This document shows positions 2,988 to 16,516 of a DNA stretch of 36,348 nucleotides, in pieces; position 1 is the first letter of the stretch; each line of letters opens with the position of its first letter. The notes beneath the pieces were generated by a model. It saw only the letters and a list, made by a program, of their open reading frames with translations. It was not told the origin of the DNA and searched no databases. The position numbers were made by a program, and so were the translations under genes. Location: positions 1-36,348 of IMG/VR virus record IMGVR_UViG_3300009551_000036; one strand, written 5' to 3'. Source of the stretch: a virus.

Positions 2988-5213
2988 TCACGGCGAGACT
3001 GCTACCGCCTCCCTTTTCATGGATTCAAAATCAACGGGAATCTGTTCCATCTCAGTGAGCCAACTTTCGGCAACTTTCTCCCAAGAAAGCGACTGAGGCT
3101 TAAAGCTCTGAAACGCTTCCCGTTCCCATCGTTTTTCACGTAAAGCTTGAAGGGTCGCGTTTGTAAAATTGCGAAACTCATCGCTTGTGACGCAATCGTG
3201 ATTGAGAAGCGTTGCCATGCCTGACTTTTCGGCTAGAGCCAAGGTGTCCTTAAGTCCACCCAAACGTCGGGTCACTGGATAGACTCCTGAGGCAATCATT
3301 TCCATTGCCGTAATGCAGCTCGTTTCGATGAAATCGCAGGGATGAAGCCAAATGACGGCTTCTTTAAAATGCCTGATCAGCTCATTCTGCTCCGTTTTGC
3401 CGTGGTATTTGACCCAGGGTCTGGAAGCAAACATCCCTTTCAATTTGTCATGGAGCGCCTGATGCCCCCACTGAGGGAGATGTTCGATGCCGTAAAAGAC
3501 ATGGAGCTCAAGATCAGGGAATTCTTTCCTGACCTCATCACAGACCAAAATAGCTCGATCGAGTCCGCGATCAGGACTAGAGGGAAATACGATCTTATTT
3601 GGGTTTTTAGCGGGCTTAGGCCCCAGGAACCTGTCGGGGTGAATTCCGTTTCTTGAAATCCAGATTTTGTCATAAGGAACGAGTTGCATGTTATGCATGA
3701 AATCCGCGTGAAACGGAGTCAGACAAATCGCCTTCACATAATTGGAAGTCTCCTCAATGCCAGGGGTGATTAAATCATGGCACCAAGCATAAGTGGGAGC
3801 ATCGGTCAGTTTCACGTTGTGGCGCCAAGAGATATGCAGATAGGGCTTATATTGAGAGAAGTAATGCTGAATCTGAGCCACAGGTAAGTACTCCACCCCG
3901 CGGATCGTTTTAATGTCAGCTCTCGCATTGAAGACTTTGACTTTTCTGCCTGAGAGTTTGGCCAGGTGTTCTGCCATTTCAATACAAGCGGTCTCAGACC
4001 CCCCCATTCCTTGCTTTCGGTACTCTTCTCCATCCCAGACATAAGGAGAGGTCGGAGTGCCTGAGAAGACAATCTCGCGAGTGGGCTTGGCCGCTTTCCT
4101 TCCACACATCAATGTGCTCATCTTCGTCAATTCATCTAAGATCTGCTTGGTCTCAGGATGCTTGTATTCGCCATGACACCGAAAGGCCACTTCCTTAGCC
4201 TCATCGATTTTCCCGAGATTGGCATAGATCCTAGCCAGCTGATTTTTGGGATAAACGCCATACGCATCATCATGAAAGAAAATAGGAGAGACGACTTGAT
4301 TGCCCGCCGGCAAATAGCATTTGCATGCGGCTTGATAAAACGGAACGGCATTCAAAAACTGGTTCATTTTCAGATAACAATCGCCCACGGCCACATAAAG
4401 CTCAGCTCGCTGAGGTGCGAGTTGAATAGCAGTCAGTGCAATTGAAATGGCTTTGTCATACTGACCAAACTCCATGTAAGAGAGAGTCAAATACTGCATG
4501 GCCAAAATCCGGTCATGCATCTCCATTTCTTCTCCACTTGAGGTGACCTCTTCTAGCTTCCGGATCGCATCAAAGCGTTTGCCTGCTTCAAAGAGTTCTT
4601 TGCCCCAATAGTATTTCATCCGGGCATCCAGTTTCGATTGATTCTTCTCAAGGAGACTGAGATTTCTGCTTCGGTCTTTGGCAAGGTCCATCTCGGTTCT
4701 CATATGCCTCACTCGCCAAGAGGGAATGAAATTGACCTTGGTATCAGGACCAGGAACAATGCCTTCATGAACGAAGTATTTCCATTTCAGGTTCTTTGAT
4801 CGCTTCGTCACTCTTTCTCTGACAAAAGTACAAGCCGGAGTCCCATCAGGTTTTGAGGCGTAGACATAATTGGCTAACCAGAAATCAGCCAGATGCATGA
4901 TATCGTTTCGCCAAGATAGAAACTCGTCTCTGCCTTCTAAGATATCATCTCCGTCCATCCAGAAGATATAATCGGTCTTTAAAGGCTCATAGCTGACATT
5001 TCTGGCAGCTGCAAAATCATTGCACCAAGTGAACTCATAGACCTCAGCTCCGAGTTTAGCTGCGATTTCCTTGGTATCATCGGTTGATCCGGTATCGGTA
5101 ATACAAATTTGGTCAAAACATCCTTGAATCGATTCAAAAACGCGTGGCAGATTTTCAGCCTCGTTTTTGACAATCATAGCAAGTCCAAGAGTGGGTCTAA
5201 GGTGTTGAGTCAT
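2988..5213 (-). CDS. Three-part glycosyltransferase: N-terminal GT2-like domain, central TPR repeats, C-terminal GT4/GT1-like domain (741 aa)
   Basis: N-terminus LAMIVKNEAENLPRVFESI..ICITDTGSTDDT...WMDGDDIL gives GT-A nucleotide-binding and DxD-type motifs. The middle has repeated helical-hairpin motifs (YYWGKELFEAGKRFDAIRKL; GQYDKAISIALTAIQLAP; LYVAVGDCYLKMNQF; LARIYANLGKIDEAKE). The C-terminus has GMGGSETACIEMAEHL typical of GT-B enzymes. Confidence 0.7.
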   Translation of the reverse strand: MTQHLRPTLGLAMIVKNEAENLPRVFESIQGCFDQICITDTGSTDDTKEIAAKLGAEVYEFTWCNDFAAARNVSYEPLKTDYIFWMDGDDILEGRDEFLSWRNDIMHLADFWLANYVYASKPDGTPACTFVRERVTKRSKNLKWKYFVHEGIVPGPDTKVNFIPSWRVRHMRTEMDLAKDRSRNLSLLEKNQSKLDARMKYYWGKELFEAGKRFDAIRKLEEVTSSGEEMEMHDRILAMQYLTLSYMEFGQYDKAISIALTAIQLAPQRAELYVAVGDCYLKMNQFLNAVPFYQAACKCYLPAGNQVVSPIFFHDDAYGVYPKNQLARIYANLGKIDEAKEVAFRCHGEYKHPETKQILDELTKMSTLMCGRKAAKPTREIVFSGTPTSPYVWDGEEYRKQGMGGSETACIEMAEHLAKLSGRKVKVFNARADIKTIRGVEYLPVAQIQHYFSQYKPYLHISWRHNVKLTDAPTYAWCHDLITPGIEETSNYVKAICLTPFHADFMHNMQLVPYDKIWISRNGIHPDRFLGPKPAKNPNKIVFPSSPDRGLDRAILVCDEVRKEFPDLELHVFYGIEHLPQWGHQALHDKLKGMFASRPWVKYHGKTEQNELIRHFKEAVIWLHPCDFIETSCITAMEMIASGVYPVTRRLGGLKDTLALAEKSGMATLLNHDCVTSDEFRNFTNATLQALREKRWEREAFQSFKPQSLSWEKVAESWLTEMEQIPVDFESMKREAVAVSP

Positions 5214-9243: not shown

Positions 9244-11221
9244 TTATGGGCTAATGTAGTTTTGCAAACAAGCGGAGGCTGATGGCTTTTCCAAAAACAG
9301 ATTGGCAAAAAGCCTGAGACGCGCTTCGAATGCGTCACTTCCAATTTGGGCGATCAGGTAACTGCCCGTTTCGTCCGCCCATTCCATCTCGGCGAGTACG
9401 TATTTTTTCAGGTTCCCTTCTGTAATAAAGAAGAACCGTGTAGGGCAGGATTGATCCGCTAGAATCGGAGCACCTGAGAAGTTGAGGTAAACCTCATCCT
9501 TACTCGTGAATGTTCCGTCTCCAGTGACCTTTTCACCGATGTATCTGCGATCAGCGACCAATACAGTCTTGTTATCGCCTTGGCTTTTTATCCTAGGCTT
9601 CTTAGGCTTCTTTTTTCACCTAAGCTCAGCGTACATTTTCAGTCTTTTGAACTGTCGACCACTCTTGGGGGCATTGTTGGTTTCATCCCTCAGCCCCTAC
9701 GCGTTACGCAGCTAACGAAATTTCTTCGTCAGTTTGCTCGGGATTGGCATCGCAGCGTCCCCCGATTTTGGTCAATTTTGAATCGCCCATTTTGGTTAAG
9801 CGATTGTAATATCTCTCAGAATCGAAATCGCAATAAACGACAGAAATCTTCCCACCGCCTCGCCGTCTAGCATTATTCAATGCTTGTTGCATGGCGTTTA
9901 GATTCAGCTGTTGACCTGCTAAATCAATATTGTTTCCTTGGAAACTTGGAAAGAGGCTCCTGTCAATATTATAGATAGAACTGGTGCCGCCGTCCAAGCT
10001 CGTCAAGAGGCCCTGGATTTCGTTGCTCACTGTTCCAGACCGAATGACAAGATTGTTGGCTGCCACACTCACATTATTATCCAATGTCAGAGTAACCGTC
10101 GCTGTTCCAATTCCGCTCATAGCTGTAATCTGAACGTTATTGGCCAACACGTTGTTATTGGTGTCGACGATATCGATCTGAGTTCCGATATCGAGAAACT
10201 TCTCAGGGGCTTCAGCTGAAGCAATCCCTGCTTGGGTATCCCGATTCTGAATCGAAATGGAGTTCGTTCCGACAGCATTAGCAGAAACGGTCGCGAGACG
10301 GCCATTGCCGTTCCACCCCAACTGACGATTCACGTCCCATTTGGAATCGTTCACATTCTGTTACCCCTAGCCTTTCGGCTAGTGGAGGAACCGCTTCGGA
10401 TTCCTCTCAACGGCTTCTTTGGTTATACCGTTGTTCAGACTATCGCATCCCTTTCGGGCCCTCTCACTTAGTCGTTCAGGCTGCTTTCGCTTGCCCCTTG
10501 TCACCCGCTTCCGGGCTTCCAAGTCAATCAGAGTGGGTTTTAGAGGGACTGTAAGTACTTGAAATACTTGAGTTAATCCCTCAGTCATTTCAAATTCCAT
10601 CGCTGTAACAAATGCGCCCTTATCACCCTGGGAGCTTTTGATCAGCGGGCCTGTGAGACCGAACAAACGATCACAGTTTTGAAATGACTTCTGCGCTTCG
10701 GTCATGCAGCACGCAGATAATTATACTTCGCAGCAATAATGGCTTGCTGAGTGGTCTGTTGACCGATTTTGGGTAGGTTTCCGCCATCACTGGTAGCTCC
10801 GATACCCTGGTTACGTCTTACCTTCACAGGTCGAATGACTTGTTGACCGTTCCACTTCTCTTTTCCCTTTTCAGCTCCCCTATAGAGCGGTAGCAAGTTT
10901 GTTATCGTCCAGGTTTTTTATCCCAGACTTCTCACCATTTTATTTCAGTGAGTTCAGCGTACATTTTCAACCATTTCTGGTTGCCGGGGACTCTTGGGAG
11001 AGTTTATGTCTCCTACGCGTTACGGACGGATCAATCCTTGATCTCGCCCTCGGTATTCCCGTCTCAGGGTCCACCGATACACCCCAGTTTTTCATTTTCT
11101 ACTTACGTAGAAAAGCGACCATTTTTACATAATCGTCATTGAATTGGGAAACGATTGGACCGGCATAGTAGTTCTTCAGAATCGCCAGGGCGTTTGCCAC
11201 GTTGGCGAATTGATTAGCCAT
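9244..11221 (-). CDS. Major capsid protein (HK97-fold-like), interrupted. Proposed coding segments, complement: 11221..11132, 10893..10711, 10669..10576, 10353..9799, 9563..9244. Mature product about 410 aa.
   Basis: GGAGG RBS then ATG at 11221 (MANQFANVANALAILKNYYAGPIVSQFNDD). Later pieces read LPLYRGAEKGKEKWNGQQVIRPVKVRRNQGIGATSDGGNLPKIGQQTTQQAIIAAKYNYLR / LFGLTGPLIKSSQGDKGAFVTAMEFEMTEG / (L)NDSKWDVNRQLGWNGNGRLATV...SERYYNR / LLVADRRYIGEKV...LQNYISP*. Together these match the recalled pattern of this capsid family (..Y.YGRI.v.GP.I.....GAF..A.E.E......NRq..GdG.G.LA.v). The gene follows the scaffold gene. Confidence 0.8.
9564..9798 (-). ncRNA. Group I-like intron 3 in the capsid gene (235 nt, no ORF), paralogue of intron 1
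   Basis: P1: exon AAUCGCU | UAACCAAAAUG GGCGAUU gives 7 bp with U.G at the splice site. It ends ...CGAUAACAAGACUG | UAUUGG. It shares these blocks with intron 1: cctacgcgttacg (9696-9708 vs 11012-11024), tcagcgtacattttca (9626-9641 vs 10954-10969), actcttggg (9661-9669 vs 10990-10998), ttgttatcg and tttttatcc. Splicing gives ...YYNR-L-LVADRRY in frame. Confidence 0.7.
10354..10575 (-). ncRNA. Group I intron 2 in the capsid gene (222 nt, no genuine ORF)
   Basis: P1: exon GAGGGAU (10582-10576) pairs with GUCCCUC (10549-10543), with U.G at the splice site. R-like UGAACGACUAAG and S-like GCGAUAGUCUGAAC give P7 GACUA (10473-10469) / UAGUC (10442-10438). P4/P5 is CUUG-GAA-GCCCG-GAAG-CGGGU-GA-CAAG. 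GAAA tetraloops occur at CCC-GAAA-GGG, GC-GAAA-GC and CUAGCC-GAAA-GGCUAG (10382-10367). It ends ...GGUAACAGAAUG | UGAAC. Length is divisible by 3 and joins GGA U|UG AAC in frame. Confidence 0.75.
10894..11131 (-). ncRNA. Group I-like intron 1 in the capsid gene (about 238 nt, no ORF)
   Basis: 5' exon ...GACGAU | UAUGUAAAAAUG GUCG gives a 4-bp P1 with a U.G pair at the splice site. It ends ...CGAUAACAAACUUG (terminal G) | CUACCG. A UUUUCUAC-GUAA-GUAGAAAA tetraloop hairpin is present. P7 candidate is GCGUA (in GUAACGCGUAGG) with UACGC (in AUGUACGCUGA). An alternative 5' splice site lies 3 nt downstream (after UAU). Confidence 0.65.
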
Positions 11222-12611: not shown

Positions 12612-15155
12612 TCATCGTCTCCTTGGGGGTAATCCCACCGGTCGCGGCGGCGACCCTCGTCCCTGCTTAGGCGGTCCTACGGGCGCAGGGCCCGGAGCTG
12701 GTGCTCCAGCTCCAAACTGTGCTTTTTTGGCCGCCATTCGGTCGTTGGCACCTGGGGGTAATCCGGCAATGGCTTCTCCACCTGCTCCAATGGGCGGTGG
12801 AGGCATTGGGGGAAGCGGAGGCATCGGAGTATTGGAAGGGCCTGGAGGCATGAGCTGATTGAGCCTGTCTTCCATCTGAGCTTCAAAAAGACGCCTAATT
12901 TCCTCAGGCAGCATTCCCCATTTATCGGATTTTCTGAATCGATTGAGCTCTTGGCACCAAAGGATGTTGTTATCCTTCTTATCGATCTCGACGAATTCGC
13001 CTTTTTCCAATGCGTCCATGCCTCGTTTGATTTGAGCCATGTCGATGTGTTGGTCTTCAAAGATTTCCTGACTCTGTCCAAATTCCAAAGCATCCAAGAT
13101 CTTCATTGCAACCGATGGATCGGATTTGGGGTCACCGAGAAGTCCCAGACTCATGGTATTGACGATGTCCTGGCGCTTGAGAGTCTTTGAATCAGGGAGA
13201 GTGGATCCTCTCACGACTCTCACATCCGTATTGCCTCTCAAAAGCCTGCCATCGAGTTCCCGGATAATGTATTCGCCTGATTTGCCGGCAAGTTTCATTT
13301 TGCGGGGCATTTCGTAATTCTTCTCCACCTGTTTTAGGATCTGACGAAACACTTTGGACCAAGATCGCTCTAAGAGTTCAGTGATGACGCTTAATCGAGT
13401 CTGATCTTGCTCCTGGAGAAGCTGAGCGCCAATAGCGGGTATAGAAGCAGAAGGCAGAATGCCGCGAGAAACGTCGCCGATCCCAAAAATATAATCCATA
13501 ATTTTGTCGAGACGCTCTTCTTCAGTGTAAGCGTATTCTGGGATGGTGGGGACGGGTAAGGGTTCGATGTTTTGAGGGGCTGAGGGCACGACATTGTAAT
13601 AAAGCACTTCTCCTGATTCATCATTCATGGCCTCTTGGGCAAGGCCGGAACCTCTCGGGGCTTTGTATTTGCCCGCAAGCATTCGTCTTGTCCATTCAGC
13701 CCTTCGTCTTAAAGTTTCATTATATTGATCCTGAATCGGTCTTGCATGAGTGACCGGAGTCTCACTGTAATATTTGCCGCCTATGATGGTATCATCAAAT
13801 TTGGTGAGCGGGATTTCTCCGATAGGCAAATCTTTGCTATCTAAGAACACACCATTCGCTGCAGCAATCATCCGTCCTTGAGGAAATTTGGCTGAAGGCT
13901 TTTCATACTTAATCATTTCAATCGCAGAATTTTTCATCTGCTCAGTCAACCCCCCTTGCGAAGGGCCGCGAGAATTGAGCGAATTGACCCGCATTTCATA
14001 CTGAGCAGAAAGAAGCCACGCTGCTTCTTCTTTCACTAAATGTCCTCGTTCTGGATAATTGGCCTGAAAGTAATGAAGCGGTCTGACTTTAGCCAGCATC
14101 AAATATTGAGCATCATCATCGGTTCTAGCAAAAGGATCTGGAAAGACCGAAAACGCCGATTCAACTTCAATATCGACATCTCCTTGATAACCCAACGTCC
14201 CATCTTCCAGGATCATCGGATCGCCTAGTAATGGGTTCCATTTCACATGAATATAGGAATGCCCACATTGCTGCATCCACATGTAAAGAAACAGGCGCTT
14301 CTTATTGACTTCCAATCTTTCGATTTGAGTGTTTAAGACCTGCATCGAAAGTTTCGCTGCATCCTTATCCTCAACATCATCTGTTTCTGGAACAATGTCG
14401 TATTCGGGTGGATTCTGACAAAGACGCGCTAATCGATTTTGAACCGTAGGTAAGATCTTATTGGCATGAATGCGGTTTCGTCTCAAGTAGGCACTGGCGC
14501 GATTGATGGGCTGAAACTGGCGCGCAGTCGTATTATACATCAGGCCGTCGTAGCCTAGGCAGTTATGGACTAAGATCCCATTGGCGAAATATTCATGGAT
14601 TGTCTCAATGGTTAGGTCAAAGACATGTTGTGGACCTACACATAAGCGCTTCACAAAACAAACGTCTTCATTCTTTTCTGAGATGACATGCATCCCGACT
14701 TGCAGATTTTGGGCTTGGACCCAGCCATAAGCTTTGGTGTAAATCTTATGCTCATCGGTGCATTTCAGAATCGATCCATCTGAGAAATAATGGTCATAAC
14801 AGGTCTTTGTGCCATTATCCCAGACTCGAAGAACACGCCGATACCCATCGCGTGTTTTAACAAGATCTTTCGTTGTGAGTTTCTCGATTGCGGTATAGCC
14901 ATTGGCCGTCGCAATGACTGAATCGCCTGAGACGCAATAGGCGCAGTTCGTCATCCAGATTCCCTCATGTGCAATTCGATTCGCACTCGAGCGATTGGAT
15001 TCCAGCTCAGCTCTTAATTTCTGAGCCATGTCGATTTCTTCAGAGGATTGATCACTGACGCTTTTGGGCTTTTTATTGCGATCTGGGTCCGTCTGCGACG
15101 ACTGGGCCGCAAAGGGCTGATTCCCCCCAAATAATGATTTCAATAAACCCGCCAT
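12612..15155 (-). CDS. Portal protein precursor (847 aa) containing a mini-intein and a Pro-rich basic C-terminal tail
   Basis: Largest head-module ORF, downstream of the terminase pieces. RBS AAGGA. The mature protein would be about 722 aa after intein removal. The portal assignment rests on size and position. Confidence 0.65.
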   Translation of the reverse strand: MAGLLKSLFGGNQPFAAQSSQTDPDRNKKPKSVSDQSSEEIDMAQKLRAELESNRSSANRIAHEGIWMTNCAYCVSGDSVIATANGYTAIEKLTTKDLVKTRDGYRRVLRVWDNGTKTCYDHYFSDGSILKCTDEHKIYTKAYGWVQAQNLQVGMHVISEKNEDVCFVKRLCVGPQHVFDLTIETIHEYFANGILVHNCLGYDGLMYNTTARQFQPINRASAYLRRNRIHANKILPTVQNRLARLCQNPPEYDIVPETDDVEDKDAAKLSMQVLNTQIERLEVNKKRLFLYMWMQQCGHSYIHVKWNPLLGDPMILEDGTLGYQGDVDIEVESAFSVFPDPFARTDDDAQYLMLAKVRPLHYFQANYPERGHLVKEEAAWLLSAQYEMRVNSLNSRGPSQGGLTEQMKNSAIEMIKYEKPSAKFPQGRMIAAANGVFLDSKDLPIGEIPLTKFDDTIIGGKYYSETPVTHARPIQDQYNETLRRRAEWTRRMLAGKYKAPRGSGLAQEAMNDESGEVLYYNVVPSAPQNIEPLPVPTIPEYAYTEEERLDKIMDYIFGIGDVSRGILPSASIPAIGAQLLQEQDQTRLSVITELLERSWSKVFRQILKQVEKNYEMPRKMKLAGKSGEYIIRELDGRLLRGNTDVRVVRGSTLPDSKTLKRQDIVNTMSLGLLGDPKSDPSVAMKILDALEFGQSQEIFEDQHIDMAQIKRGMDALEKGEFVEIDKKDNNILWCQELNRFRKSDKWGMLPEEIRRLFEAQMEDRLNQLMPPGPSNTPMPPLPPMPPPPIGAGGEAIAGLPPGANDRMAAKKAQFGAGAPAPGPAPVGPPKQGRGSPPRPVGLPPRRR
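14562..14936 (-). mobile_element. Mini-intein (125 aa, residues 74-198 of the portal ORF, +1 Cys at residue 199), no endonuclease domain
   Basis: Block A CVSGDSVIATANG. Block B ILKCTDEHKIY (TxxH). Block F VFDLTIETIHEYFANG. Block G ILVHN followed by C. Codons checked on the sequence: tgc at 14936-14934, aac at 14564-14562, tgc at 14561-14559. Confidence 0.8.
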
Positions 15156-15419: not shown

Positions 15420-15738
15420 TGTTTTTACTCGGAACTTTGGCTGTGTTAGTCCCCTGAATCACCTTGGCTTCATCATCCCCATAAAGAATTTGACCCAAAG
15501 GACGCTCTAATTCCTCTTTTAAGCGCTGAGATTTGCCAAATTCAGTCACTTTGACGGATTGGAAGATAAAGTATTCGGCATGGGGACCTAATCCCCCTTT
15601 ATTGAAATGATCGATGATTTCCTTGGAAGTTTCGATCCATTCCTGTCCTTCAATCGTTGCGCGGTGAATCTTGGAATAAAATTGGTTGAGAGTTTCTTCA
15701 GTCTCATTCAGACCAAGCTTCACGCCCTGAGCTTCCAT
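15406..15738 (-). CDS. Hypothetical protein (about 110 aa from the internal ATG; the ORF is open from 15846)
   Basis: The ORF overlaps the 3' end of the terminase nuclease gene. The start was chosen at MEAQGVKL to minimise that overlap. Confidence 0.4.
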   Translation of the reverse strand: MEAQGVKLGLNETEETLNQFYSKIHRATIEGQEWIETSKEIIDHFNKGGLGPHAEYFIFQSVKVTEFGKSQRLKEELERPLGQILYGDDEAKVIQGTNTAKVPSKNNGRR

Positions 15739-16516
15739 TTTGTGAGCTTTCGGTGAGGTGTTGGATATACCAGGACTCGTATTTGGGGTCGTTTGGACTG
15801 TGGGGTTGCTCAAGCTTCTTTTTCTCCCTTGTTGGATAATAAACAAGTTCCTCTAAACTGGCCAATGCGTCAAGGATATCATCGTGAGTTCCGCGGGGGA
15901 ACGCGTCATATTCATCCTCGAATTCAACCATTCCAGGGTAACAGAATAAATGTCCCCACTCGAATCTGGGGACTAGGCCTAAGATTCGAGAGGATTTAGA
16001 GATATTGTTTCTCCTAATGCCTTTTACGGGAAGCATTTTGTCGCGCTTGATCATTTCTTCTGAAATGAGATATAAAAGCGCCTCTTGATAACCCACGATT
16101 TCAATCCCGATGGCATCGAGTTCAAACTGCTCTTGAAGATCAAAGGCTTTATTAACAATCTGTGTCGGAGTCAGGCGATAGCGTGAAGCGAGTCTTAAAT
16201 ACCAATTCCGATCCTGATCAGCATAGACGACGGCGATGCCGGTATAGTCACTGTGCTTATGCTGGCCAATGGCTGGATCAATGAAAGCAAACTTAGTGCA
16301 TCCTTCTGGGATTTGAGTGGTGTATCTCAGCCATTCTTTTCTAAACTTCTTTTCCTCATCGGGGATGATGACGTTTAAATATTGGTTGGCAAAGAGATAA
16401 GACCCCATGGTCCGTCTGGCTTGATCTAAGAACTCTTGGGTCAGTCTTTCAGGAAAGAAAAGAGATCCATCGTCATTGATGGCCTTTTTATAGACGACGC
16501 TCCAGCGGTCGTTCAA
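15704..16516 (-). CDS. terL: Large terminase, C-terminal nuclease-domain fragment (270 aa, TTG start)
   Basis: RWSVVYKKAINDDGSLFFPERL..LFANQYLNVIIPDEE..FAFIDPAIG..YTGIAVVY..GIEIVGYQ..HDDILDALASL are RNase-H-like nuclease motifs of TerL. GGGAG lies 7 nt upstream of a TTG that overlaps the TGA of the upstream ORF. Confidence 0.85.
   Translation of the reverse strand: MNDRWSVVYKKAINDDGSLFFPERLTQEFLDQARRTMGSYLFANQYLNVIIPDEEKKFRKEWLRYTTQIPEGCTKFAFIDPAIGQHKHSDYTGIAVVYADQDRNWYLRLASRYRLTPTQIVNKAFDLQEQFELDAIGIEIVGYQEALLYLISEEMIKRDKMLPVKGIRRNNISKSSRILGLVPRFEWGHLFCYPGMVEFEDEYDAFPRGTHDDILDALASLEELVYYPTREKKKLEQPHSPNDPKYESWYIQHLTESSQNGSSGREAWSE

Follow-up and report, generated by a model that had tools for sequence, protein, structure and literature searches.

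The gene orf142 of phage Twort is reportedly interrupted several times, and in T4 gene 60 the ribosome bypasses a gap of 50 nt. A published major capsid protein (MCP) gene of a crAss-like phage is broken into five fragments, and one of the four gaps lacks intron-typical domains (PMC7886860). In fungal small-subunit ribosomal DNA (SSU rDNA), degenerate small group I introns (PaSSU and its relatives) of 56–81 nt have P1, P7, P10 and a pairing with the 3' exon (PMC3160393). In vitro, the Azoarcus ribozyme works with its guide sequence given in trans (PMC2709566). Here we analyze the MCP gene of a virus, located on the minus strand at 9244–11221 of IMG/VR record IMGVR_UViG_3300009551_000036, whose entire 36,348 nt are referred to as the window. 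The gene consists of five exons and four intervening sequences, three of full size (I1, I2 and I3) and one of 47 nt, referred to as the mini-intron. With a probability of roughly 0.6, we read the locus as three autonomous group I introns and a core-less mini-intron, which would be spliced by the catalytic core of I2.

Five exons of the capsid gene

The minus strand at 9244–11221 presents open reading frame (ORF) fragments of 40 (30 exon codons plus read-through), 64, 108, 216 and 105 aa. The original prediction, made from the letters of the window, had listed the last four together with a first exon of 30 codons, and joined them across three introns into one continuous protein of about 410 aa. 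Our homology query of 426 aa consists of the fragments joined at these three junctions, with the frame break between the 64- and 108-aa pieces bridged by hand. It matched 931 homologues; the best 120 of the 931 are mostly ~400–414 aa long and encoded by single uninterrupted ORFs, and the closest among them have 411 aa and 83% identity. These uninterrupted 411-aa homologues run ungapped through NDD/LPLY, TEG/LND and YYNR/LLVAD, which shows the predicted junctions 11132/10893, 10576/10353 and 9799/9563 to be exact.

Between YNYLR and FGLTGP, however, the query carries 15 extra residues where the homologues have nothing. Three joins do not yield a continuous protein here. The 64- and 108-aa fragments lie in different frames and overlap in ATGA, an in-frame TGA occurs between them at 10704–10702, and 47 nt are in excess. 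The gene has four interruptions and five exons, instead of the three and four that had been proposed. Excising all four elements gives 1236 nt, that is 411 codons and a TAA, and no fewer removals give an ORF.

All five exons lie on the minus strand. Exon 1 (11132–11221) has 30 codons, MANQ...FNDD. Exon 2 (10711–10893) has 61 codons, LPLY...YNYLR, and the 3' end CUGCGU, and exon 3 (10576–10663) has 88 nt, encoding FGLTGP...EFEMTEG plus 1 nt. Exon 4 (9799–10353) has 555 nt, and exon 5 (9244–9563) has 320 nt including the TAA stop at 9246–9244. The predicted spliced junctions are GACGAT/CTACCG for exons 1 and 2, TATCTGCGT/TTCGGTCTCACAGG for exons 2 and 3 with the mini-intron removed, GAGGGAT/TGAACG for exons 3 and 4, and AATCGCT/TATTGG for exons 4 and 5.

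The spliced coding sequence (CDS) was compared without gaps to its intact counterpart of 1236 nt in L298, a syntenic relative; a global MAFFT alignment of the interrupted and the intact gene had misplaced large gaps. The two are colinear and ungapped at 71.6% nucleotide identity, with 209 synonymous versus 58 non-synonymous codon differences distributed across all five exons. This ungapped match with mostly synonymous changes indicates purifying selection on the capsid gene, so the four inserts must be neutralized somehow. The gene might also be simply broken, in a defective phage or through an assembly error, leaving the 47 nt without function, and at face value the insert is a frameshift with a stop. 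The synonymous excess speaks against this idea, the same contig was independently assembled in Logan, JGI and ENA data, and the insert is retained in five lineages with intact exons and compensatory changes (see below). We regard a broken gene as extremely improbable.

The expectation that gene callers would miss the capsid protein is borne out as far as they break the gene into fragments. To call such an arrangement unusual, as the original prediction did, was overstated in view of the five-fragment crAss-like MCP gene and Twort orf142.

A scan of GTDB genomes returned three uninterrupted capsid relatives, which sit in metagenome-assembled genomes of unrelated taxa, so we make no inference on the host. 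In another relative, L174, the capsid gene contains an in-frame TAA (2783–2806) and no insertion; FGLTAGMVDS*KSDAGSFV aligns there with FG.TGPMIKASQSDVGSFV. The TAA may reflect an error in sequencing, recoding of the stop codon or a pseudogene.

The 47-nt mini-intron and its tether to I2

The mini-intron (10664–10710, minus strand) reads GCUGCAUGA-CCGAA-GCGCAG-A-AGUCAUUUCAAA-ACUGUGAUCGUUUG, with an in-frame UGA at 10704–10702 and a terminal G at 10664. Differences between the flanking bases leave only one possible placement of its boundaries. The first 20 nt form a loop of 9 nt, followed by CCGAA and GCGCAG. In P1 (10691–10716), the exon end CUGCGU (10716–10711) pairs with the guide sequence GCGCAG (10696–10691), placing a U·G pair at the splice site. 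In P10 (10659–10701), CCGAA (10701–10697) pairs with the first five nucleotides of exon 3, UUCGG (10663–10659).

By searching with N-terminal ORF fragments of ~93 aa, we found an insert at the same codon boundary in four more lineages, with 45 nt in L017, 45 nt in L034, 38 nt in L035/L036 and 40 nt in L040. Across the five lineages neither length nor frame is conserved, and a stop codon follows 0–2 codons past the last exon codon in all of them. P1 and P10 are paired in 55 of 55 cells. A compensatory change in P1 turns CUG into CUC together with GCGCAG into GCGGAG (CUCCGU/GCGGAG in L034) and is synonymous in the exon. In P10, UUCGG/CCGAA alternates with UUUGG/CCAAA in two of the five lineages through the synonymous change UUC to UUU, and this UUC→UUU/CCGAA→CCAAA change is present in both of two divergent lineage pairs. 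CGU precedes every insert and is found at this position in 7 of 14 intronless genes. The insert is kept down to ~60% protein identity with the exons intact; by tblastn, the lineages have 61–66% identity to the best reference over the N-terminal exons and 48–50% downstream.

Past the guide sequence only 18–27 nt follow, with no conserved sequence or hairpin. This is far too little for a P3–P9 core, so the mini-intron should be unable to catalyze its own removal. It has the P1 with U·G, the P10 and the terminal G of a group I intron and lacks a P3–P9 core of its own; it appears to behave as a group I substrate domain and not as an autonomous group I intron. In our view, group I chemistry likely takes the 47 nt out of the RNA.

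These features bear on two explanations at the level of translation. In the first, the ribosome would skip 38–47 nt and land at the start of exon 3 with the RNA uncut, as in T4 gene 60. The size of the gap is near that of gene 60, the stop comes 0–2 codons on, and a stem, which is the P1 helix with its U·G pair, lies at the take-off region. The take-off and landing codons are unmatched, however, since CGU stands before the insert and no in-frame CGN precedes exon 3 in L017, L034, L035 and L040. P1 and P10 must act before translation, because a ribosome at the stop codon of the insert would melt both. The U at −1, the 3' G and the U·G pair would be left without a role, and the tether helix described below would sequester exon 3 and have no reason to track the position of I2. 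We consider such a bypass quite unlikely.

In the second, the capsid would consist of two polypeptides, one of 93 aa up to the insert stop and one of 321 aa from re-initiation at the NUG with which the insert closes. The last three nucleotides of all five inserts are indeed UUG, GUG or AUG and share the frame of exon 3, and in the window the ATGA forms a stop/start overlap. But an NUG ending is common to the full-size introns of both families found here, a Shine-Dalgarno-like sequence occurs in L040 only, and the ATG frame of the window is unused in L017. The split would fall between the E-loop and the P-domain of the HK97 fold, and the covariation of P1, P10 and the tether would go unexplained, which makes a two-piece capsid highly improbable. 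Frameshifting and read-through of the 47 nt were rejected along with bypass and re-initiation, as insert lengths of 47, 45, 45, 38 and 40 nt do not conserve the frame and the codons are unmatched.

An I2-type intron is located 39–88 nt downstream of the mini-intron in five of five lineages, at four different sites, and the lineages other than the window (L017, L034, L035, L040) have neither I1 nor I3. In the window, the mini-intron tail AGUCAUUUCAAA (10689–10678) pairs with UUUGAAAUGACU in exon 3 (10594–10583). The resulting helix of 12 bp (10583–10689, minus strand), which we call the tether, abuts the 5' strand of I2 P1, GAGGGAU. This is the best duplex site for the tail within 1.8 kb, at −20.5 kcal/mol (p = 0.0045 against shuffled tails). 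In L034, the tail GAAGCUUUGAU forms 11 bp with AUCAAGGCUUC, followed by the I2 P1 strand CCAGGGU. In L035, CGAGUUUGUA forms 10 bp with UAUGAACUCG, followed by A and the strand UAUGGGU, and in L040, GUCUGAGG forms 8 bp with CCUCAGAC, followed by G and the strand UAGGGU. In L017, CACCC forms 5 bp with GGGUG next to the strand CCUUCGU. The exon-3 partner adjoins the 5' strand of I2 P1 with a gap of 0–1 nt in all five lineages.

Compared with shuffled tails, the cognate duplex gives p = 0.10 in L017, 0.0025 in L034, 0.0035 in L035 and 0.0075 in L040, besides the value for the window. It exceeds the non-cognate exon duplexes in four of five rows, and in scans of ~1.8 kb the tether site ranks first in the window and L034, second in L040, and third in L017 and L035. 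The window and L035 share the same I2 site with different exon codons, and their tails differ correspondingly. G·U pairs in the tether helices of L034 and L035 point to RNA pairing rather than a DNA repeat. Pairing of the tail with I2 itself was also considered and dropped, as in each of the five lineages the tail pairs more strongly with exon 3.

Based on these helices, we propose that I2 folds and that its guide sequence would pair with the end of exon 3, while the mini-intron tail would pair with the adjoining exon-3 bases and stack on I2 P1. The tether would set the P1/P10 stack of the mini-intron, with both splice sites, beside the I2 core. The core would then cut after CGU using exogenous G, ligate exon 2 to exon 3 at the terminal G of the mini-intron, and excise I2 last. 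The mini-intron is expected to leave first, because after the departure of I2 nothing would hold the core near it. I1, I2 and I3 themselves would splice autonomously by the standard two-step, guanosine-initiated pathway. As for I2 being the catalyst of mini-intron removal, we lean only slightly towards it.

The mini-intron could instead be a self-sufficient minimal ribozyme of group I-like type, which folds with the help of exon 3 and has the I2-type intron as a mere frequent neighbor. The small introns of fungi retain P1, P10 and a pairing of the intron's middle part with the 3' exon, and in vitro splicing was reported for one of 67 nt (PMC3160393); the phage mini-introns likewise have P1, P10 and an intron-to-3'-exon pairing. 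At 33–47 nt, on the other hand, they show no conserved P7-like hairpin or G-binding site, and their tails share no sequence. The 3'-exon partner always abuts I2 P1 and moves with I2, and the co-occurrence with I2 extends over five of five lineages and other loci. We take a self-sufficient ribozyme to be unlikely.

Protein enzymes might also remove the 47 nt by way of the exon-bridging duplex, with a host or phage endonuclease and an RNA ligase such as RtcB in place of a ribozyme. The guide sequence does form an 11-bp duplex across the exon junction and could present both junctions. The duplex has no bulge-helix-bulge geometry, however, the U·G pair and the terminal G are specific to group I chemistry, and the link to I2 would be left unexplained. 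To our knowledge, no protein-based splicing pathway of that type exists for bacterial mRNAs, and we hold this explanation to be very unlikely. Why the tail tracks I2 P1 is left unexplained by all of the rival explanations, and all of them fail in one specific test or more. Judged by sequence comparison, the 47 nt are a group I element that recurs, covaries, lacks a core and is tethered to a full intron.

The relative L173 carries a full-size I2-type intron at the identical site, with the same guide sequence as the L034 mini-intron, and an intron like that of L173 is a plausible ancestor of the mini-intron. A second I2-type copy nearby could complement the first, which could then lose its core by deletion.

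We also searched blindly upstream of 87 I2-type 5' splice sites in IMG/VR and in eight decoy sets, requiring P1 of 6/6 with U·G, P10 of 5/5 after G and, directly beside I2 P1, a tether of 7 bp or more. This three-helix architecture occurs at four of the 87 loci versus 0–1 per decoy set (mean 0.4). In L188, the mini-intron has 46 nt and the middle exon 33 nt; the values are 35 and 26 nt in L192, and 33 and 25 nt in L246. The same search minus the strict abutment rule found L220 and L266, with mini-introns of 46 and 45 nt and a middle exon of 35 nt, whose tethers are bipartite or 1–3 nt off I2 P1. P1 with U·G, P10 and the terminal G are present in all of L188, L192, L246, L220 and L266.

At these extra loci, the ORFs are open across both junctions once the mini-intron and the I2-type intron are removed. 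The doubly spliced C-terminus of L188, the sole extra locus that can be checked in this way, aligns gap-free with a contiguous homologue. L220 and L266 are in homologous genes and differ by a compensatory P1 pair, GACCCU/GGGGUC versus GAUCCU/GGGAUC, and their tethers follow a serine codon switch from AGU to UCU. The host genes of the extra loci have no tblastn or PHROGs matches. We see evenly balanced chances that these elements constitute a phage class of non-autonomous group I mini-introns of 33–47 nt, reduced to the helices P1 and P10, the terminal G and a tether that can be retargeted. Such elements would depend on a helper, and the tether stacked on the helper P1 would enforce the order of mini-intron first and helper second.

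Scans of IMG/VR with DNA patterns of the mini-intron either found nothing or matched MT(K/E)AQK gene starts by chance. In JGI metagenome contigs, a collection without relevant contigs, they gave none and then 19 chance matches. One candidate, the 590-nt contig L038 (ENA k141), which had the look of a long ORF-bearing mini-intron with a third compensatory P1 pair, was dropped. Its capsid N-terminus, ...YLRTA*, runs into a fragment of a lambda Nu1-like small terminase (phrog_1790, E 1.7e-23), and it has ~18 nt in common with the 5' part of the mini-intron; it is probably an assembly chimera.

Full-size introns and the gene neighborhood

The boundaries of I1, I2 and I3 are uniquely fixed by colinearity with intact genes. 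All three lie on the minus strand, lack ORFs, form a U·G pair in P1 at the 5' splice site, and end in G. I1 (10894–11131, 238 nt, terminal G 10894) is of an IA-like family with P7.1. Its helices are P1 (CGAU 11135–11132/GUCG 11119–11116), P2 (11114–11095), P3 (11087–11082/10989–10984), P7 (11018–11014/10961–10957), P7.1 (11013–10997), P8 (10982–10969), P9 (10952–10931) and P9.1 (10928–10907). I2 (10354–10575, 222 nt, terminal G 10354) has no P2. It folds into P1 (GAGGGAU 10582–10576/GUCCCUC 10549–10543), P3 (10537–10531/10465–10459), P7 (GACUA 10473–10469/UAGUC 10442–10438) and P8 (10458–10449), and then P9, P9.1 and P9.2. I3 (9564–9798, 235 nt, terminal G 9564) is a paralogue of I1 without P2, and has P1 (AAUCGCU 9805–9799/GGCGAUU 9787–9781), P3 (9775–9770/9660–9655) and P7 (9702–9698/9633–9629).

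A blastn search against phage genomes gave matches only inside the three large inserts. Homologous elements occur in intron contexts, between two CDSs annotated 'P22 coat protein' and between two ribonucleotide reductase (RNR) CDSs. They also follow an HNH ORF in Staphylococcus phage ROSA and, within a DNA polymerase gene, a LAGLIDADG ORF. The I2 family has at least 120 members in IMG/VR, nine of which were aligned to examine the fold. The alignment supports P1, P3, P4, P5, P6, P7 (pseudoknotted with P3), P8, P9 and P9.1. Pairing is found in 95.2% of cells versus 36–46% in controls with slid partners, 32 of 52 pairs show compensatory changes, and none of 500 shuffles reaches the observed values.

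I1 and I3 belong to a second family. In IMG/VR its motif is matched exactly 108 times, and its fold has P7.1, an additional hairpin located between P7 and P3'. A profile of 72 unique members matches I3 at E 4.9e-28 and I1 at E 2e-26 (nhmmer), and within the window both family profiles match only at the three introns. Among 19 full-length members, 94.1% of cells are paired and 37 of 52 pairs are compensatory, with 0 of 500 shuffles reaching these values. P7 is invariant in both family sets save for one compensatory change in L035, and is largely uninformative for covariation for this reason.

Our findings agree with the original prediction that the three inserts are ORF-less group I introns: the 5' exons end in U, the introns begin with UA and end in G within (G/A)UAACA...UG tails, and a P7 pairing can be assigned in each. 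Very probably, I1, I2 and I3 are group I introns that splice themselves, and as such they add new members to known kinds.

Across the relatives L017, L034, L035, L039, L040, L041, L173 and P0124, I2-type introns are found at no fewer than seven different positions in a stretch of ~110 nt of the capsid gene. These sites include one after CU/U of a Leu codon (L039, L041), one after CGU of an Arg codon (L173), and others after SQG (L034), SDVG (L040), AFV (L017) and TEG/DMG (window, L035, P0124). In every copy, 6–7 nt of guide sequence are complementary to the 5' exon of that copy and include a U·G pair. This suggests that the ORF-less intron is frequently retargeted, for example by reverse splicing.

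An I2-type intron also lies near the 3' end of a distant capsid gene (25% identity) of another phage with a P22/SU10 portal (L032/L033, 2900–3250). Many IMG/VR contigs contain at least two I2-type introns within a few hundred bases, among them L192, L228, L181, L184, L199, L203, L246 and L257. The second copy in L192 begins ~45 nt past the end of the first, and L228 may contain further mini-intron-like elements.

Several points weigh against reading the locus as three autonomous introns and a mini-intron spliced by I2. The case is drawn from comparing sequences, and the spliced sequence itself is not in the protein collection, where the best match to the product is 86% identical. The mini-intron alignment comprises five lineages and two covarying columns only. 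The tether was spotted first and the statistics were run afterwards, and the 5 bp of L017 are non-significant by themselves. The P1/P10 stack would sit ~19 bp along a helical arm from the I2 active site, and we know of no natural group I ribozyme that splices a second, core-less intron. For I1, P1 has 4 bp only.

Furthermore, the Rfam group I model RF00028, proposed as a check, gives no match in the window at the gathering threshold or in the region at E ≤ 10, which at face value counts against group I introns. The model also misses every tested relative, both the split RNR and DNA polymerase homologues and 20 IMG/VR family members, but it detects an unrelated intron in L106 with 80.5 bits, ~230 nt from a family member. 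RF00028 is therefore insensitive to these two families, and its negative result is uninformative. L106 itself harbors two different group I introns ~230 nt apart, at 1700–1781 and 2012–2235 of the minus strand, one of which is recognized by RF00028.

The top Foldseek matches of the AlphaFold capsid model, a poor one with a predicted local distance difference test (pLDDT) score of 55, are the capsids of Mic1, SU10, VP1, Pa223, T5 and HK97. The spliced protein has no Pfam match, and a PDB profile search gave no capsid match; some capsid homologues carry PF17236. The gene is located downstream of the portal gene and two unannotated ORFs of 282 and 159 aa. Fold, as far as it can be read from this model, and capsid-module synteny make the product an HK97-fold MCP.

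The portal gene (12612–15155, minus strand) encodes 847 aa with a HINT/intein-like domain at residues ~74–198, which matches PF07591 at 41.8 bits, above the cut-off, and Intein_splicing and Hint_2 more weakly. The portal of L298 has 699 aa and no HINT/intein match on record, so the portal of the window probably contains a mini-intein of ~150 aa. For the large terminase (15704–16516, minus strand), only the C-terminal nuclease half is recognizable, in a 270-aa ORF that covers positions 466–713 of 760 of phrog_38 with Terminase_6C just under the cut-off. No adjacent ORF up to 17705 matches the ATPase half. The terminase gene may be interrupted too, or very divergent; the profiles of both intron families, run on the window, find no copy in this region. 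Within the virion structural module, a 741-aa protein at 2988–5213 (minus strand) has two glycosyltransferase domains (phrog_13126, E 2e-51) and is conserved in L017 and L298.

Comparison with known systems

Four interruptions hide a highly expressed, essential gene from gene callers. The mini-intron resembles a frameshift or a pseudogene, and it is missed by intron detection based on ORFs or covariance models. As the same architecture is present in other phage genes, some of the 'broken' genes in viromes may be intact. In the literature searched we found no description of a helper-dependent mini-intron, which is not proof of absence.

If the helper model is true, group I introns have non-autonomous derivatives, as transposons have miniature inverted-repeat transposable elements (MITEs). 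The locus would then contain a natural modular ribozyme, with the substrate domain and the catalytic core on separate elements and a programmable helix between them. It would be the first natural ribozyme core to splice a second intron, and the mini-intron the smallest intron of group I type. This would be relevant to how introns degenerate, to how exon skipping is avoided between tandem introns, and to trans-splicing ribozyme design. The I2 family is, besides, a good system for how ORF-less introns change target.

As in the crAss-like MCP gene and Twort orf142, several group I introns of small size, with short exons between them, occur here within a single late or structural gene, which gene callers fragment. 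Unlike in those genes, the full introns here are all ORF-less and come from two families undetected by the Rfam model, and the fourth element is far below the usual intron size and base-paired beside its neighbor.

T4 gene 60 resembles the locus in having a non-coding gap of ~40–50 nt with an early stop in an essential phage gene, unseen by gene callers. It differs in the codons, as matched take-off and landing codons are missing here. The phage insert has group I splice-site signatures instead, and pairs with both exon ends and with the exon beside a ribozyme.

The fungal small introns share P1, P10 and the 3'-exon pairing with the phage mini-introns, and in both cases flanking RNA is suspected to supply the missing structure. 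However, the fungal introns keep P7, reside in rRNA and are reported to self-splice, one of them with a terminal U (PMC3160393). The phage mini-introns are 33–47 nt long, reside in mRNA, have no detectable P7 and end in G, and a complete group I intron always follows.

Engineered trans-acting group I ribozymes, and ribozymes given their guide sequence in trans, likewise separate the substrate helix (P1, lengthened by P10 and one more guide pairing) and the core into modules joined by base pairing (PMC2709566; PMC6155759). Those are laboratory constructs, whereas the arrangement proposed here would be natural, would act in cis within one transcript, and would remove a second intron.

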